Below, one piece after another: positions 2,544-53,876 of a DNA stretch of 64,000 bases. The position numbers were made by a program, and so were the translations under genes. Position 1 is the stretch's first letter. Every line of letters begins with the position of its first letter. The stretch is from Gammaproteobacteria bacterium (GTDB lineage: Bacteria > Pseudomonadota > Gammaproteobacteria > Steroidobacterales > Rariloculaceae): assembly GCA_035513215.1 (NCBI GenBank), contig DATKCK010000106.1, forward strand, positions 15,651-79,650. Direction: 5' to 3'. Below the pieces are notes generated by a model. It was not told the DNA's origin. It made no database searches and saw only the letters and a program-made list of their open reading frames with translations.

Positions 2544-3928
2544 TGCGTATCCACATCCTCGGCATTTGCGGCACTTTCATGGGCGGCATCGCTGCGCTGG
2601 CCAAGGCGGCGGGACACCAGGTATCCGGGTCCGACGAGAACGTCTATCCGCCGATGAGCACGCAGCTACGCAAGCTCGGCATCAAGCTCCAGGAGGGTTA
2701 CGATCCCAAGCACCTCGCGTCCGATCTCGATTGCGTCCTCGTCGGCAACGTGCTGAGCCGCGGCAATCCGGCCGTCGAGGCGCTGCTCGATTCGGGAATG
2801 CCGTTCTACTCGGGCCCCGAGTGGCTCGCCCGCAACGTGCTCGTCGGCCGATGGGTCATGGCCGTGGCCGGCACGCATGGGAAGACGACGACGAGCAGCA
2901 TGCTCGCGTGGATCCTCGACTACGCCGGTCTCGAACCCGGGTTTCTGGTGGGCGGCGTGCCGCAGGACTTCTCGATCTCGGCGCGCCTAGGACGGTCGCG
3001 CTATTTCGTCGTCGAAGCGGACGAGTACGACACGGCCTTCTTCGACAAGCGCGCGAAATTCGTTCATTATCGACCGAAGACGCTCGCTATTACGAACATC
3101 GAGTTCGACCATGCGGACATCTATCCCGATCTCGATTCGATCCTGTGGCAGTTTCACCAATTGTTGCGCGTCGTTCCTCGATCGGGACTCGTTGCCGCAA
3201 ACGCGCGAAGCGATGCAATCGAGAAGCTGCTCAAGATGGGCGTCTGGACGCCGGTCGAGACATTCACTGCGACGGACGCCCCGGCGGACTGGTCGGCGGA
3301 CTACGAGCTGATCGGCGCCAAGAGCAGATTCAGCGTGCTGCACAAGGGCGAGAGAGTCGGACAGGCAGGCTGGGCGCTACTCGGCCGGCACAATCTCGAG
3401 AACGCGCTGGCTGCGGTCAGCGCGGCAGCGCATGCGGGGGTCGATGTCGATCTGGCGCTCGAGGCGTTGTCGAGGTTCAAAGGTGTCAAGCGGCGCCTGG
3501 AAAAACGCGGCGTGTTTCACGGCGTATCTCTCTACGAGGACTTTGCGCACCATCCGACGGCAATCACTCAGACGCTTGCGGCGCTGCGCGCGCAGCAGGG
3601 TGACCGCAGAATCGTGGCCATCGTCGAGCCACGCTCGAATACGATGCGCATGGGTGTCCATCGAGACGCGCTGACGAAGTCGCTGGCCGATGCCGATCAG
3701 GTCTACGTGCTCGAGTCCAAAGGGCTGCAATGGGATCCGCGCTCGGTGCTGGCCGGCATAGGCGACAAGCTTCGAGTTGAATCGGATGTGAGAAGCATCG
3801 TCGACAACGTGCTTGCCGATTCCCGTTCCGGCGATCAGATCGTCATGATGTCGAACGGGAGCTTCGATGGACTGCCGAGGTTGCTGCAGCAAGCCTTCAA
3901 GAGCGCCGACAGCCTCGGAGAGCACTGA
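2543..3928 (+). CDS. mpl: UDP-N-acetylmuramate:L-alanyl-gamma-D-glutamyl-meso-diaminopimelate ligase (murein peptide ligase)
   Basis: 461 aa. N-terminus [39 protein letters not shown] is typical of Mpl. Mur-ligase P-loop [11 protein letters not shown]. Confidence 0.93.
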
Positions 3929-3930
3929 GC

Positions 3931-4095
3931 GTGAAGACCTATATGTGCCTGATCTGCGGCTACATCTACAATGAGGCCGCCGGTTGTCCCGAGGAGGGCA
4001 TCCCGCCGGGGACGTGCTGGGAGGATGTTCCCCTGTCGTGGCGCTGCCCCGACTGCGGGTCGGGCAAGGAGGACTTCGAGATGGTCGAAGTCTGA
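3931..4095 (+). CDS. rubredoxin (54 aa)
   Basis: Not in the ORF track because it is under 60 aa. GTG 3931 (or ATG 3943) to TGA 4093-4095 reads [54 protein letters not shown]. It carries both rubredoxin iron-binding knuckles, C-x-x-C-G and C-P-x-C-G, with the conserved aromatic residues. Confidence 0.85.
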
Positions 4096-4106
4096 GCCGT
4101 TCGACG

Positions 4107-4925
4107 CTAGGGGTCGAGCCAGACGACTTTCGTGTCTATTTGCCCGTCGGGGTGGAGGGTGAGCCAGCGCATGCCGGGCGGGCGGCTGTCGATGGCGAAG
4201 AAATCACTGCTTGGGAGGAACTGCGAGCAGGTCGAGGGGGCGCTCATGAAGCGGATGTCGCCGCGCGTTCGCTCGGACGCCTGGTGAACGTGTCCCCATA
4301 ACACGGCTCTGACGCTTGTGCTGGCATCGAGCGCGGCGAGGAAGTTTTCGGCGTCTCGCAATCCGACACCGTCGAGCCAGGCGCTGCCCATATTCAAGGG
4401 TTGATGATGCATGCAGACGACGATGTGCTGGGTCTCGTGTTCCTTCAGAGAGGCGGTCAGCGCTTCGAGCCTTCTCCCGCCGAGGCCGCCCGCGTCTTCA
4501 CCGGTCAGAAATGTGTTGAGCAGAATGAAAGACCAGTTTCTCAGTCGTCGTGACCCGCAAAACTGGAATGGCTCGCCGCTCAGTATTTCGTCCATCAGCT
4601 TCGGGTCATCGTGATTGCCGGGCAGGCATAAGACCGTGACTTCGAGCTGCTCCATCTCGGAGCGAAACAGCTCGTATCCTGCGCGGCTTTCGTCTTGCAC
4701 GATGTCGCCGCTGACGATGACCGCGTCGGCCGGCCAGTACTTATCGGCACGGGCCCGATCGAGAACGGCACGGAAGGTGTCGTACGTGTTGACCCCGCGC
4801 ATCCGGCTGTCCTTCGTCGCGTGCAGGTGAGTATCGCTGATCTGCAGCAGGCGAAGGGCGGTGTCGCTCGAGTTCTCGGACATGGCGCGTTGCGATTTCT
4901 GATTCGAGCGCATTATCTTACTCAA
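4107..4925 (-). CDS. cpdA: 3',5'-cyclic-nucleotide phosphodiesterase (calcineurin-like metallophosphoesterase, CpdA type)
   Basis: 272 aa. Metallophosphoesterase motifs ISDTHL, SGDIV, GNHDD, MHHQP, GHVH. An alternative start at 4883 (MSENSS...) is possible. Confidence 0.8.
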   Translation of the reverse strand: MSKIMRSNQKSQRAMSENSSDTALRLLQISDTHLHATKDSRMRGVNTYDTFRAVLDRARADKYWPADAVIVSGDIVQDESRAGYELFRSEMEQLEVTVLCLPGNHDDPKLMDEILSGEPFQFCGSRRLRNWSFILLNTFLTGEDAGGLGGRRLEALTASLKEHETQHIVVCMHHQPLNMGSAWLDGVGLRDAENFLAALDASTSVRAVLWGHVHQASERTRGDIRFMSAPSTCSQFLPSSDFFAIDSRPPGMRWLTLHPDGQIDTKVVWLDP

Positions 4926-28498: not shown

Positions 28499-28840
28499 CG
28501 GGAGTCGGCCGAGCAGTCGCCGGGAGCAATCCCGGAGGAAAGTCCGGGCTCCATTGGGCAAGGTGCCAGGTAACACCTGGGGGGCGTGAGCCCACGGCCA
28601 GTGCAACAGAAAGCATACCGCCGGATCCGTCCGGTAAGGGTGAAATGGTGCGGTAAGAGCGCACCGCGCTCGTGGCAACACTGAGCGGCAGGGTAAACCC
28701 CACCTGGAGCAAGACCGAATAGGGAAGCGTTGAGTGTGCCCACACGAGCTTCCGGGTAGGTCGCTCGAGGCGTCCGGAGACGGGCGCCCCAGATGAATGA
28801 CTGCTCTCGACAGAACCCGGCTTACAGGCCGACTCCCTTT
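28499..28840 (+). ncRNA. rnpB: RNase P RNA, bacterial type A
   Basis: Universally conserved blocks are present in the correct order: GGAGGAAAGTCCGGGCTCCA, ACAGAAAGCATACCGCC, GGTAAGGGTGAAA, GGTAAACCCCACC, AGATGAATGACTGC, ACAGAACCCGGCTTA. The P1 pairing is GGGAGTCGGCC...GGCCGACTCCC. The ends are approximate (+/- 3 nt). The track ORFs 28407-28745(-) and 28487-29029(-) over this region are spurious. Confidence 0.92.
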
Positions 28841-47945: not shown

Positions 47946-48122
47946 GTCGCTCGCCTGATTCCACGTTCGTACCGGTCCATGACCGCAGCCCTTCGAGGCT
48001 GCCCAAGGGACCTCTTCCGGCGTGTCGCGCCAACACGCCCTGCGTCCAGGCGCTCCCGTGCGACAGCGCCCTGCAGGAAAAGGGTGTCTGGCCCCCTTTA
48101 CTTGTGGGAGTTCGGTCCCAAT

Positions 48123-51110
48123 ATGGATCGGAAATCCCTAGAATATCGCCTCCCGCCCGCAGCCCAAGGACCTCGTTTGCCCAACTTTGCTACCCACTTC
48201 CTGACCGGCATCTTCGGCAGCCGCAACCAGCGCCTGCTGAAGCAGTACCAGGCCCAGGTCAGCGCAGCCAACGCTCTCGAGGAAAAGATCAAGGCGCTCA
48301 GCGACGAGCGGCTCAGGGAAAAGACCGCGGAGCTCAAGTCGCGTTACCAGGCCGAGGGCAGTCTCGAGCCGGTTCTGCCGGAAGCTTTCGCCGTGGTGCG
48401 CGAGGCTGCCGTGCGGACGCTCGGGATGCGGCATTTCGACGTCCAGCTCATCGGTGGAATCGCCCTGCATCAGGGCAAGATCGCCGAGATGCGCACAGGC
48501 GAGGGCAAAACGCTCGTCGCGACGCTCGCCGCCTATCTCAACGCCCTGACGGGCGGGGGCGTGCATATCGTCACCGTCAACGACTATCTGGCGCAGCGCG
48601 ATGCCGACTGGATGGGGCCGGTGTACCGGTTTCTCGGGCTCGAGGTTGGCGTGGTCAAGAGCGGACAGTCGACCGAAGAGAAACGCCGGGCCTATGCGGC
48701 AGACATCACCTACGGCACGAATAATGAGTTCGGCTTCGACTACCTGCGCGACAATCTGGCCTTTCGCGTGGAGGACAGGGCGCAGCGCAAGCTGTCCTTC
48801 GCGATCGTCGACGAGGTCGACTCCATCCTGATCGACGAAGCGCGCACTCCGCTGATCATCTCGGGAAGGTCCGAGGAGAGCACCGAGCTCTACGTGCGCA
48901 TCAACGCCATTATTCCGAAGCTGAAGCCACACGTTGTCCCGGCAGGGCCGACCAACGAGGCCATCGAGGCTCCGAAGGTCGATGTGATCGGAGTCGGGGA
49001 CGAGCAGCTCGGTGTCATGTCACGCGCCGAGGCCCTGGCGAAGGCCGAGGACGGCGGCCATCACCTCGTCGTCGTCGATCAGCAGGCGAGGCCCGCGAGG
49101 GCGAAACTCTTCGTGCCGGGCGACTACACGGTCGACGAGAAGGCGAAGCAGGCTCATCTGACCGAGGAGGGCCACGACCGCATCGAGGGGCTCCTGACGC
49201 GAGCCGGAATCCTCGAGGCCGGACAGAGTCTCTACGACCCGGCCAATATCCGGCTGATGCACCACCTGACGGCGGCGCTCAGGGCCCATGCGCTCTACAA
49301 GCGCGAGGTCGACTATATCGTCAGCAATGACGAGGTCGTCATCGTCGATGTGTTCACGGGCCGGACCATGCCCGGAAGGCGCTGGTCGGACGGGCTGCAT
49401 CAGGCAATCGAGGCGAAGGAAGGCGTGCGCGTCAAGGAAGAGAATCAGACCGTCGCGTCGATCACCTTCCAGAACTTCTTCAGGCTCTATTCCAAGCTCG
49501 CCGGCATGACAGGCACGGCCGATACCGAAGCCTTCGAGTTCCAGCAGATTTACGGTCTGGAGGTCGTCGTCATTCCGACGCACAAGGAAATGATTCGGCT
49601 CGACGCGCCGGATCTCGTTCACCTCACCGAAGACGACAAATTCGATGCGATCCTCGACGACATCGCCGATTGCCGCGAGCGCGAGCAGCCCGTGCTCGTC
49701 GGCACGACGTCGATCGAGACGTCGGAGCTGCTGTCGGCCAAGCTCAAGAAGCGCGGTATCCCGCATAACGTGCTCAACGCCAAGTACCACGAGCGCGAAG
49801 CCGAGATCGTCATGCAGGCCGGGCGGCCCGGGGCCGTGACCATCGCGACGAACATGGCCGGCCGCGGCACCGATATCGTGCTCGGCGGCAGTCTCGCGGC
49901 CGAGAAGGAAGCGCTCGGGCCTGACGCCGATCCCGAGGGGATCTCAGCGCTTACAGCCGACTGGAAAGAGCGCAACGCCAAGGTTCTCGAGAAGGGCGGG
50001 CTCCATATCGTCGGGACCGAGCGGCACGAATCGCGGCGCATCGACAACCAGCTCCGGGGCCGCTCGGGCCGGCAGGGCGACCCGGGCTCGAGCCGCTTCT
50101 ATCTGTCGATGGAAGACAGTCTGATGCGCATCTTCGGCGATCCCGAGCGCACCAAGCGGCTTTTGTCCGTCGCCGGCATGAAACAGGGTGAGGCGATCGA
50201 AAGCCGCCTGCTGTCGCGGCAGATCGAGCGTGCCCAGCGCAAGGTCGAGGCGCACAACTTCGATATCCGCAAGCAGCTCCTCGAGTACGACGACGTCGCG
50301 AACGATCAGCGCAAGGTGGTCTATCAGCAGCGCACCGAGCTGATGGACGCCGACGACGTCGCCGATGCGATCGCCGGCATTCGCGAAGAGGTCGTCGACG
50401 ATCTCGTTGCCGAGTACATCCCGCCCGAGAGCGTCGAGGAGCTATGGGACCTCGAGGGGCTGACGAAGGCGCTCGAGCGCGAGTTCGGCCTTTATCTCGA
50501 CGTCGCCCAGATGGTCGAGCAGGACGAAACGCTGAGCGAGAGGGAGATCGCCCGGCGCGTGCTCGAGGCGATCGTCGCGGCCTACGAGGCCAAGACGGCT
50601 TCCGTCGGCGAGCCCGTCATGCGCGAGCTCGAGAAAGTCGTGATGCTGCGTCAGCTCGATTCGCACTGGAAGGAGCACATCGGCGCGCTCGACTACCTGC
50701 GGCAGGGGATCGGTCTGCGCAGCTTCGCGCAGCGCAATCCGAAGCAGGAATACAAGCGCGAAGCCTTCCAGATGTTTTCGGACATGCTCGATCGGGTCAA
50801 GCGCGAGACAATCGCGATTCTCTCGAGGGTCGAGATTCGCAGGCCGGAGGACGTCCGCGCCGCCGAGGCCCCGAGGCCGGCGCCGGGATCGCTGAGCTTC
50901 CAGCATGCCCAGCCGCCCGGGCTGGCTCAGGCAGCGCCGCGACTGCCGGAGGGTCAGGCACCGCCGGCCGCAACGGCCGGTCAGCCGCGTCGGCCGGCGG
51001 CCGCGCCGGTCGAGCCGTTCGTCCGTGAGCAGCCGAAGGTCGGGCGCAATCAGCCTTGTCCGTGCGGCTCGGGGAAGAAATACAAGCAGTGCCACGGGCG
51101 CCTGAGCTGA
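48123..51110 (+). CDS. secA: preprotein translocase ATPase SecA (with an atypical ~50-aa insertion, see findings)
   Basis: [65 protein letters not shown], and the C-terminal zinc site [14 protein letters not shown]. The track ORF starts at 47979. The first in-frame ATG is 48123, and an in-frame TTG at 48177 would give an N-terminus closer to typical SecA. Confidence 0.95.
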
Positions 51111-52350: not shown

Positions 52351-52974
52351 CTATTCTGCGCGACCTTGCGTCCCCGGGCAATTTTGGGCGAGCCTCAAGT
52401 AGCTCGCGTGAAGGGCCGCGACGCCGTCGCGTGTGGCCTCGATCGTCGTGCTCGAGTCGATGATGTCATCGGCGAGGGATTGCCTCTCGGCCCGTTCCAT
52501 CTGCGCATCGATGATGGCGCGGGCTTCGTCGCGGTCGGTTTCGTCGCGGGCCATGAGCCTTTCGATCTGTAGCGCCTCGGGACAATCGACGGCGACGGTG
52601 CGCTCGACGAGCCGGTCGAACCCGGACTCGAACAGCAGCGGCACGACGAAGATCACATAGGGCCCCGCACACCCGGCCGATCTCGCAAGCGCCGTCTCCC
52701 GAATCCGGGGGTGAAGAATCGCCTCGAGACGGTGTCGCCGATCGGCATCACCGAAGACGATACGGCGCATCAGGTGCCGGTCGAGCGTGCCGTCGGGGCC
52801 AAGAACGCTCTGACCGAAGGCCTCGACGATCTCGCCAAGGACCGGTCCGCCGGGAGCGACGAGCTCCCGCGCGATGGCGTCGGTATCGATGACACAGACC
52901 CCGAGCTCGGCGAACATAGCAGCCACCGTCGATTTTCCGCTGGCAATGCCGCCGGTCAGGCCGATGCGGAGCAC
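52351..52974 (-). CDS. coaE: dephospho-CoA kinase
   Basis: I trimmed the track ORF (52351-53652, 433 aa) to GTG 52974, 2 nt after the pilD stop. VLRIGLTGGIASGKST P-loop and VVPLLFE. The upstream part of the track ORF overlaps pilD in another frame and is an artefact. Confidence 0.9.
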   Translation of the reverse strand: MLRIGLTGGIASGKSTVAAMFAELGVCVIDTDAIARELVAPGGPVLGEIVEAFGQSVLGPDGTLDRHLMRRIVFGDADRRHRLEAILHPRIRETALARSAGCAGPYVIFVVPLLFESGFDRLVERTVAVDCPEALQIERLMARDETDRDEARAIIDAQMERAERQSLADDIIDSSTTIEATRDGVAALHASYLRLAQNCPGTQGRAE

Positions 52975-52976
52975 GC

Positions 52977-53876
52977 TTATCCCGTCAGGCTCAGGTACCA
53001 GCTCATGATATCCCGGCCGAACAGCAGGGCCAGCCAGCCGGCGCCGGCGAGATACGGGCCGAACGGGATCTCGGCCTGCCGCGAGCGCTGGCCGGTCAGG
53101 ATCAGCGAGAGGCCGACGATCGAGCCGACGGCGGCCGAGAGCACGATGACCAGGGGCAGGAGCTGCCAGCCGAGCCAGGCGCCGAGCGCCGCGAGCAGCT
53201 TGAAGTCCCCGTACCCCATGCCTTCCTTGCCGGTGACGAGCTTGAATATCTGATAGACGCTCCAGAGGCTGAGATACCCCGCCGCCGCGCCGATGACGCT
53301 CGATCGGAGATCGGGCCCGGCGAAAACCGGAGCACCGTCGATCCGAACCAGGGTCAAGATAATGCCGATCCAGAGCAGCGGCAGCGTCATGCTGTCCGGC
53401 AAAAGCTTGTGGTCGAGGTCGATCAGCGACAGCGCGATCAGATACCAGGTGAGAACGAGCGCGGCCGGCGTGGCCCACGTCGCGCCGAATCGGATCGCAA
53501 CGACGACGCTCAGAATCCCGGTCAGCGCCTCGACGATCGGATAGCGCGGCGATATCGCTGCTCGGCAGTGGCCGCAGCGGCCCTTGAGCAGGAGGTAGCT
53601 CAGGATCGGAACGTTCCGGCTCGCCGGGATCGGGTGACGGCAATGGGGGCATCGGGACCGGGGCGAGACCAGGTCGAAGCGCTCTTCTTCGACGGGGGGC
53701 GCGCCGTGCGCTTCGGCCGCCTCGGCCCGCCAGGCGCGCTGCATCATCAGCGGCAGCCGGAATGCCACGACGTTGAGAAAGCTGCCGACGACGAGCCCGA
53801 TCGCGAGGCTCGCGACGATCAGGGCCGGTGGCCAGACCTCGAAGATGTCCAAAACGGCGGTGTCAGACCACGGCAC
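52977..53876 (-). CDS. pilD: prepilin peptidase / N-methyltransferase (A24 family)
   Basis: 299 aa. Cys-rich cytoplasmic segment CPHCRHPI...CGHCR, catalytic Asp motifs (DLDHKLLPD and GYGDFKLLAALGAWLG), and multiple TMs. Confidence 0.93.
   Translation of the reverse strand: MPWSDTAVLDIFEVWPPALIVASLAIGLVVGSFLNVVAFRLPLMMQRAWRAEAAEAHGAPPVEEERFDLVSPRSRCPHCRHPIPASRNVPILSYLLLKGRCGHCRAAISPRYPIVEALTGILSVVVAIRFGATWATPAALVLTWYLIALSLIDLDHKLLPDSMTLPLLWIGIILTLVRIDGAPVFAGPDLRSSVIGAAAGYLSLWSVYQIFKLVTGKEGMGYGDFKLLAALGAWLGWQLLPLVIVLSAAVGSIVGLSLILTGQRSRQAEIPFGPYLAGAGWLALLFGRDIMSWYLSLTG

Follow-up and report, generated by a model that had tools for sequence, protein, structure and literature searches.

An initiation factor 3-type domain embedded in the preprotein cross-linking domain of SecA from uncultured Gammaproteobacteria

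How does a domain typical of a translation initiation factor come to lie in the preprotein translocase subunit SecA, and what would it do there? The question is raised by a secA gene in a 64,000-nucleotide stretch of a gammaproteobacterial genome (contig DATKCK010000106.1), which we refer to as the window and whose coordinates are used throughout. A by-eye reading of these letters, the original prediction, had pointed to an extra segment of about 50 residues in this SecA and to its likeness to the N-terminal domain of initiation factor 3 (IF3). The peptide that it quoted is encoded exactly at 48927-49127, in frame within one SecA open reading frame (ORF), and we find the inserted segment to be a true, complete homologue of the IF3 N-terminal domain.

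The host protein was identified from its coding sequence, profile matches and motifs. The maximal ORF of secA runs from 47979 to 51110 on the forward strand in one frame without interruption, and three landmarks define the gene:

48177-51110, forward strand: secA coding sequence, end including the stop codon; 977 amino acids from TTG 48177, matching the public protein HUF74311.1
48498-48512, forward strand: Walker A motif GEGKT of the first nucleotide-binding domain (NBD1), invariant in an alignment of 107 homologues
51057-51098, forward strand: C-terminal SEC-C zinc-binding motif (Pfam SEC-C, E 3.6e-10)

HUF74311.1, titled 'MAG TPA: preprotein translocase subunit SecA [Gammaproteobacteria bacterium]', has 977 residues and is identical to the window SecA. 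The original prediction had given 995 residues; the in-frame ATG at 48123 that yields this longer reading does exist, but the public annotation starts at the TTG. The NCBIfam SecA equivalog models NF009538 (1239.7 bits, cut-off 814) and TIGR00963 (1096.5 bits, cut-off 800) both match the protein, and the Pfam families SecA_DEAD, SecA_PP_bind, P-loop_SecA, SecA_SW and SEC-C are all above their cut-offs, in keeping with the earlier view that the rest of SecA is canonical. By comparison, the SecA2 equivalog models all fall below their cut-offs: TIGR03714 (711 against 930 bits), TIGR04221 (618.5 against 725), TIGR04397 (870 against 1085) and NF012136 (627 against 1100). The window protein carries the complete SecA domain set, namely NBD1/DEAD, preprotein cross-linking domain (PPXD), NBD2, scaffold/wing and C-terminal zinc motif, with the GEGKT and DEVD motifs both located, and the catalytic motifs are conserved in the 107-homologue alignment.

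The extra segment was delimited against 25 distinct solved SecA and SecA2 sequences. The alignment to the solved chains ends after ...IIPKL and restarts at PGDYTVDEK, and the 64 residues in between (K...V, 48924-49115) have no counterpart in any solved SecA chain. Unlike the window protein, all 25 sequences have a short loop here, which varies among them, and none aligned to the inserted residues. E. coli SecA has a 13-residue loop (239-251) at the site, and the net gain of about 51 residues agrees with the size first estimated. The Pfam SecA_PP_bind profile is broken by the insert between its positions 19 and 20, and the E. coli PPXD comprises residues 221-377 (PMC6620043). The insert site therefore lies inside the PPXD and not at the NBD1/PPXD junction, where it had originally been placed; it comes after the first PPXD helix, some 20 residues past the connecting strand TPLIISG, which is one of the two clamp β-strands (TC-β; residues 219-224 in B. 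subtilis; PMC9926265). The parts of this region are as follows:

48846-48866, forward strand: NBD1-to-PPXD connecting strand TPLIISG, invariant in the 107-homologue alignment
48867-48923, forward strand: first PPXD helix, directly 5' of the insert; aligns to E. coli SecA up to residue 238, helix 233-248 in the full-length model
48924-49115, forward strand: inserted segment KPHVV...AKLFV, 64 residues, replacing E. coli loop 239-251
48924-48953, forward strand: conserved entry linker with the consensus L-K-x-H-x-P-P-x-G-K-A, in which H4, P7 and G9 are nearly invariant
48954-49118, forward strand: IF3-N-type four-stranded β-grasp core NEAIEA...KLFVP, gapless to IF3 N16-D69 (E. coli numbering)
49119-49412, forward strand: remaining PPXD, GDYTVDEK onward; SecA_PP_bind positions 20-110, residues 319-430 of the 995-residue reading

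Outside the insert, the window SecA resembles the canonical PPXD (PF01043; E. coli 2FSF/2VDA, B. subtilis 1M6N, T. maritima 3DIN), sharing its connecting strands, its first helix and the β-hairpin GDYTVDEK that comes next. Local identity to E. coli SecA around the site is about 70-80%, and the remaining PPXD aligns to E. coli residues 252-376.

The homology to IF3 was established with several independent profiles and searches. Pfam IF3_N (PF05198) matches the full-length SecA with an E-value of 9.3e-13 and 48.6 bits, above the gathering cut-off of 26.9, over profile positions 1-67 of 70 (residues 277-343 of the 995-residue reading, 48951-49151), and the insert alone with 1.1e-13 and 51.5 bits. 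A tblastn search of the 64-kb window with E. coli IF3 returned the insert as its sole match (36.8% identity over 68 residues, E 3e-6), so that the likeness first seen by eye is borne out; the same search revealed no infC gene in the window. Conversely, a profile built from 54 SecA inserts and run against solved chains retrieved E. coli IF3 (8jsg, 1.1e-12), Bacillus IF3 (1tif, 2.8e-10) and Thermus IF3 (5lmn, 6.3e-10), and no solved SecA. Like the IF3 N-domain (1TIF, 8JSG, 5LMN), the insert has the same topology, can be aligned gaplessly along some 55 residues (36-42% identical to E. coli IF3-N), and shares the motifs N-x-x-I, L-G, E-A-L-x-x-A, L-V and P-x-x-C-(R/Q). The window SecA is not itself an IF3: the full-length IF3 model TIGR00168 reaches 32.7 bits, below its cut-off of 60, with a match confined to profile positions 7-74 of 170, and Pfam finds no IF3_C in the protein. 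Unlike in IF3, the domain is embedded in SecA instead of leading to a linker helix and C-terminal domain, and it is preceded by a conserved Pro/Gly/His entry linker of its own, which is not part of the IF3 fold.

A phmmer search of the insert against 1.84 billion protein representatives gave 13 matches: four insert-bearing SecA fragments, seven IF3 proteins and two repetitive proteins (P0125 and P0129), the last of which we judged to be compositional false positives. It matched no full-length SecA representative; the 50% clusters are presumably represented by insert-free sequences. An insert-only search of a 5.8-billion-protein index scored none of its two candidates although the collection contains an identical protein, which reflects the word-index limit for short queries and not rarity. 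The best IF3 match to the insert is P0127, a gammaproteobacterial-type IF3. By eye, two of the non-SecA matches, P0126 (185 residues) and P0132 (297 residues), each carry two tandem IF3_N-like domains, which suggests that this small domain is duplicated in IF3-like proteins as well. At the 3' junction of the insert (49116-49130, ...FVPGDYTV...), the SecA-native GDY of GDYTVDEK aligns with the DY of IF3 ...CRIMDYGKF. The Pfam IF3_N alignment consequently extends into native SecA, to residue 343 of the 995-residue reading, and the overlap may be a trace of microhomology where the domain first inserted, or a coincidence.

The predicted fold leads to the same assignment. AlphaFold2 models the insert alone as β-β-α-β-β with a mean predicted local distance difference test score (pLDDT) of 79.3 (strands 19-23, 29-34, 48-53 and 59-64; helix 35-45). 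The same elements recur in the full-length model at pLDDT 81-90 (strands 267-271, 277-282, 296-301 and 307-312; helix 283-293), preceded by the entry linker at 81-83. On the forward strand, they are encoded at:

48975-48989, forward strand: β1 (AlphaFold2)
49005-49022, forward strand: β2 (AlphaFold2)
49023-49055, forward strand: helix (AlphaFold2)
49062-49079, forward strand: β3 (AlphaFold2)
49095-49112, forward strand: β4 (AlphaFold2)

As judged by Foldseek against the PDB, ranks 1-10 are all IF3 N-domains, bacterial and mitochondrial, with template modeling (TM) scores of about 0.7 and probability 1.00 (1tif: TM 0.71/0.62, probability 1.00). Far weaker matches follow to other β-grasp proteins: protein L, ubiquitin, SUMO, RNA polymerase II Rpb2 and IscB. 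This ranking agrees with the assignment of IF3-N to the β-grasp folds, as a basal four-stranded form (PMC1949818).

How widely the insert occurs was evaluated from the best 120 matches listed for each of two queries, the window SecA and L020, the most divergent insert-bearing SecA found (240 entries). All 120 listed homologues of the window protein (71-100% identity) carry a precomputed PF05198 match, as do all 120 of L020, which add about 100 new clusters; no insert-free sister lineage was present among the latter. The insert-bearing homologues form more than 200 clusters from NCBI, ENA, JGI and Logan assemblies, short- and long-read, and the insert keeps its site and frame among them. Its length is equally stable, the L...P segment being 66 residues in 208 of 221 full-length sequences and off by 1-4 residues in the others, and the domain is kept in 221/221 full-length sequences and 240/240 listed homologues. 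A DNA-level scan with one genome per GTDB species found it in at least 23 species, a lower bound since the scan was limited to lineages with the motifs AKAKEGGH or GKAN[DE][ED]IE. Nearly all 23 are labelled uncultured Gammaproteobacteria and come from soil and fen sets of metagenome-assembled genomes (MAGs); one insert-bearing protein is labelled Candidatus Rariloculaceae (order Ca. Rariloculales, Gammaproteobacteria).

These data dispose of the reading that the segment arose from chimeric assembly or from reading through a frameshift, or is a variable, low-complexity loop with a chance likeness to IF3. The window does come from a metagenome-assembled genome, and some related long-read assemblies have frameshifts in secA. 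Against this stand the recurrence of the same insert, site and frame in more than 200 clusters from independent assemblies and in 23 species genomes, E-values between 1e-12 and 1e-13 for IF3 profiles, both curated and derived from structures, the fold match to IF3, and a base composition equal to that of the rest of the gene. Assemblies, profiles, fold and composition together refute an artefact, to which we give practically no chance; the segment is an in-frame domain insertion in an uninterrupted ORF, as was first proposed, and a conserved one rather than a low-complexity variable loop.

The long-read cases can be listed separately. In several such MAGs (L017, L019, L021, L022 and L023) the secA frame is broken in or near the insert, with the secA region around 6000, and in L019 about 30 codons of secA are read in the wrong frame. 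The most likely cause is homopolymer indel errors of assembly, not decay into pseudogenes.

We then turn to the residues by which the insert differs from IF3. Column counts were taken from 176 distinct SecA inserts aligned with E. coli, Bacillus and Thermus IF3; the core is gapless relative to IF3 in most. In IF3, the invariant R25, the well conserved R66 and Q33 touch the elbow of the initiator tRNA, and mutation of R25 impairs or cripples IF3 function (PMC9723500). The informative columns in the SecA inserts read:

IF3 R25 column, 176 inserts: E 92, S 49, A 12, D 7, Q 5, G 3, V 2, I 2; never K or R
IF3 R66 column, 176 inserts: Q 133, R 29, K 3
IF3 R20 column (insert column 16, in the I-E-A motif): E in 170 of 176
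IF3 D52 column (insert column 48, start of strand 3): His in 174 of 176

Thus, unlike IF3, the inserts mostly have Glu, Ser, Ala or Asp at R25, Glu at R20, His at D52 and mostly Gln at R66. Since the R25 column is never basic, an IF3-like tRNA contact would be unlikely. Some branches are closer to IF3 (…GCRLIVPGDY compared with …VCRIMDYGK of IF3), which suggests that the ancestral insert was nearer to IF3. We considered whether H4, H47/H48 and C61 make up a metal site and rejected this as a general feature, C61 being Ala in 65 of 176 inserts and H47 variable.

The same counts bear on a reading in which the domain is still IF3-like and docks on the 30S platform, tRNA or other RNA, either tethering SecA to ribosomes for co-translational capture or regulating translation, for example of its own mRNA. 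The domain is after all a true IF3-N homologue with its whole fold kept, and SecA is known to bind ribosomes (PMC6620043). Furthermore, IF3-N at first occupies the 30S platform close to uS11, where its contacts are ill-defined at the level of residues (PMC5037330), so that loss of R25 is compatible with a platform-binding mode. In addition, the R66 equivalent is Arg in 29/176 inserts, and 85/176 have Arg or Lys at column 19. On the other hand, R25, whose mutation cripples IF3 (PMC9723500), is never replaced by a basic residue and most often by Glu. After the uS11 platform stage, IF3-N travels with the tRNA elbow, and it is the linker and C-domain that give most of the 30S binding (PMC5037330); both are absent from the SecA insert. 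SecA is known to contact the ribosome with its N-terminal helix, the N-terminal part of the helical scaffold domain (HSD), F399 and its C-terminal metal-binding domain; the PPXD is not among these sites (PMC6620043). The missing R25 and the location of the SecA-ribosome contacts outside the PPXD lower the standing of this idea, and we consider it improbable; the evidence leans against a ribosome-related role of the insert, which the original prediction had offered as pure speculation. That the module still recognises a translation component, whether the 30S platform/uS11, a tRNA-like elbow or an mRNA leader, seems to us likewise improbable.

The evolution of the insert was compared with that of its host. 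Pairwise identity of the insert (36-100%) tracks that of the rest of SecA (72-100%) with a Pearson r of 0.84. The ratio of nonsynonymous to synonymous substitution rates (dN/dS) is 0.30 for the insert and 0.09-0.17 for the flanking SecA segments, and GC content at third codon positions (GC3) is 0.83 in the insert compared with 0.85 +/- 0.03 in the gene. GC3 within one standard deviation of the gene's offers nothing in favour of a recent horizontal origin, which we discarded. Taken together, the data show an old folded domain that has been passed on vertically, under purifying selection less strict than that on the motor core. Its co-divergence with SecA would fit a single acquisition in a large uncultured, mostly soil gammaproteobacterial clade. 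Small deletions occur within it: either four residues of the β3-β4 loop (...EVEPGGCRLIVP) or two helix residues (...EALARRGAHH...) are lost. The shortened forms are:

62 residues: P0158, P0160, P0163, P0169 and P0173
64 residues: L020, P0136 and P0137

The inserted fold thus tolerates some trimming, and it was never lost among the sampled sequences.

Such a pattern could also be expected of a near-neutral passenger, that is, a duplicated infC fragment sitting in a tolerant surface loop, devoid of any role of its own and kept only because it has to stay folded if SecA is not to be disturbed. This is the main alternative to the reading that we favour. The dN/dS of about three times that of the SecA core, insert identities down to 36% where the rest of SecA stays at or above 72%, the small number of surface positions universal in the wider clade, the deletions in some lineages and the variability of the host loop among solved SecA proteins all speak for it. 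Yet no sampled member has lost the domain, and positions not found in IF3 are strongly conserved (His 48, Glu 16, and H4, P7 and G9 of the linker). These family-specific positions indicate a new constraint beyond that of staying folded, and we regard a mere passenger as unlikely, though deserving of serious weight.

Based on these observations, we favour, with moderate confidence, a joint reading in which a copy of IF3-N was gained once by secA of this clade, kept vertically and co-opted as a protein-contact module of the PPXD, not as an RNA binder. The copy, probably derived from a proteobacterial infC, lies in the PPXD surface loop past the first helix and has been kept as a compact β-grasp domain. 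It has lost the IF3-invariant tRNA-elbow arginine and gained the near-invariant His, the mostly conserved Glu and the Pro/Gly entry linker, and would no longer act as IF3 does. The PPXD is a mobile clamp that swings between the helical wing domain (HWD) and NBD2 and rests on SecY loop 8/9 (PMC9926265, PMC6620043). The conserved entry linker and the pLDDT in the full-length context suggest that the domain has a defined mounting, and together with the mobile-clamp setting they make a protein-contact or regulatory module the favoured option. Mounted rigidly on the PPXD, such a module might adjust how the clamp moves between the HWD side and the NBD2 side, or how it docks on SecY or on a partner specific to the lineage, and would bind neither tRNA nor the 30S subunit.

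Several points weigh against this proposal. (i) The role is read from residue patterns. (ii) Some sub-lineages keep the R66 equivalent (29/176) and an Arg at column 19 (70/176), so that a basic patch of different shape may exist. (iii) Evolution about three times faster than that of the SecA core would also fit a weakly constrained decoration. (iv) The single acquisition is drawn from co-divergence and not from a rooted tree, and an insert-free sister lineage lies outside the sample. (v) The full-length AlphaFold2 model, made from a shallow alignment, has a predicted TM score (pTM) of 0.39 with badly modelled NBDs, and we therefore take no inter-domain geometry from it (packing on the PPXD, SecY-facing or exposed).

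Lineage-restricted insertions at surface sites are familiar in SecA, as in the VAR subdomain of E. coli NBD2 and the insertion in Thermotoga NBD1. To our knowledge, neither is a recognisable copy of another family's domain; the present insert differs in being an identifiable translation-factor domain, and in lying in the PPXD. A looser parallel is offered by the lineage insertions of the bacterial RNA polymerase β and β' subunits, which are small folding domains in surface loops, inherited vertically and evolving faster than the core. This is an analogy only: host and donor fold differ, and no functional parallel is implied.

The genomic setting of the gene is conventional. The gene order in the window is lpxC, an M23-peptidase gene directly 5' of secA, secA, a NUDIX (mutT-like) gene, zapD and coaE, and the same gene block lies downstream of ftsA-ftsZ in the MAG of a relative (Ca. 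Rariloculaceae). The window gene is accordingly the single, canonical housekeeping secA at the end of the cell-division cluster.

Other features of the locus were recorded alongside. From the M23-peptidase stop to the secA TTG (47946-48176) there are 230 nucleotides, open in the secA frame back to an ATG at 47979. Between lpxC and the M23-peptidase gene lies a c-di-GMP-I riboswitch (RF01051; 46833-46918, forward strand; 61.8 bits, gathering cut-off 35), which recurs in the corresponding place in 10 of the 12 related loci that were scanned, in one case as the GGC variant RF03167. The riboswitch-bearing related loci, with the element at about 3880-4150, are:

L003-L006
L008
L010-L012
L014
L016

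No riboswitch match was obtained in L018 and L020, the two most divergent insert-bearing loci, and a search for terminator-like or sigma-70-like sites between the riboswitch and secA found none. Elsewhere in the window, bacterial class A RNase P RNA (RF00010, 335.5 bits) is encoded at 28501-28840 on the forward strand, and no tRNA genes were found within the 64 kb. The maximal ORF of CoaE (52351-53652, reverse strand) has its dephospho-CoA kinase domain at residues 230-404, behind a 229-residue Arg/Pro-rich N-terminal extension with no Pfam match, and the CoaE of the relative L024 has only 203 residues; the extension probably results from an ORF called too long in this GC-rich DNA.

We found no description of a SecA with an IF3-N domain in the full-text literature. 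The combination thus appears to be undescribed, as was suspected from the outset, although Pfam matches for the architecture are already present in precomputed tables.

Were a contact with the ribosome or RNA retained, the Sec motor would be wired via its clamp to translation initiation or ribosomes, a direct, domain-level link between protein synthesis and export that model bacteria do not show. SecA is among the most studied and most conserved bacterial machines, and its PPXD clamp captures the substrate and docks on SecY. An IF3-N domain fixed in this clamp across an abundant uncultured soil clade is a natural experiment on how much decoration the clamp tolerates, and provides a handle for asking what governs clamp movement. 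It would also be a clean case of a 'universal' translation-factor domain recruited outside translation, in which the RNA-contact arginine was lost and new conserved residues were gained.

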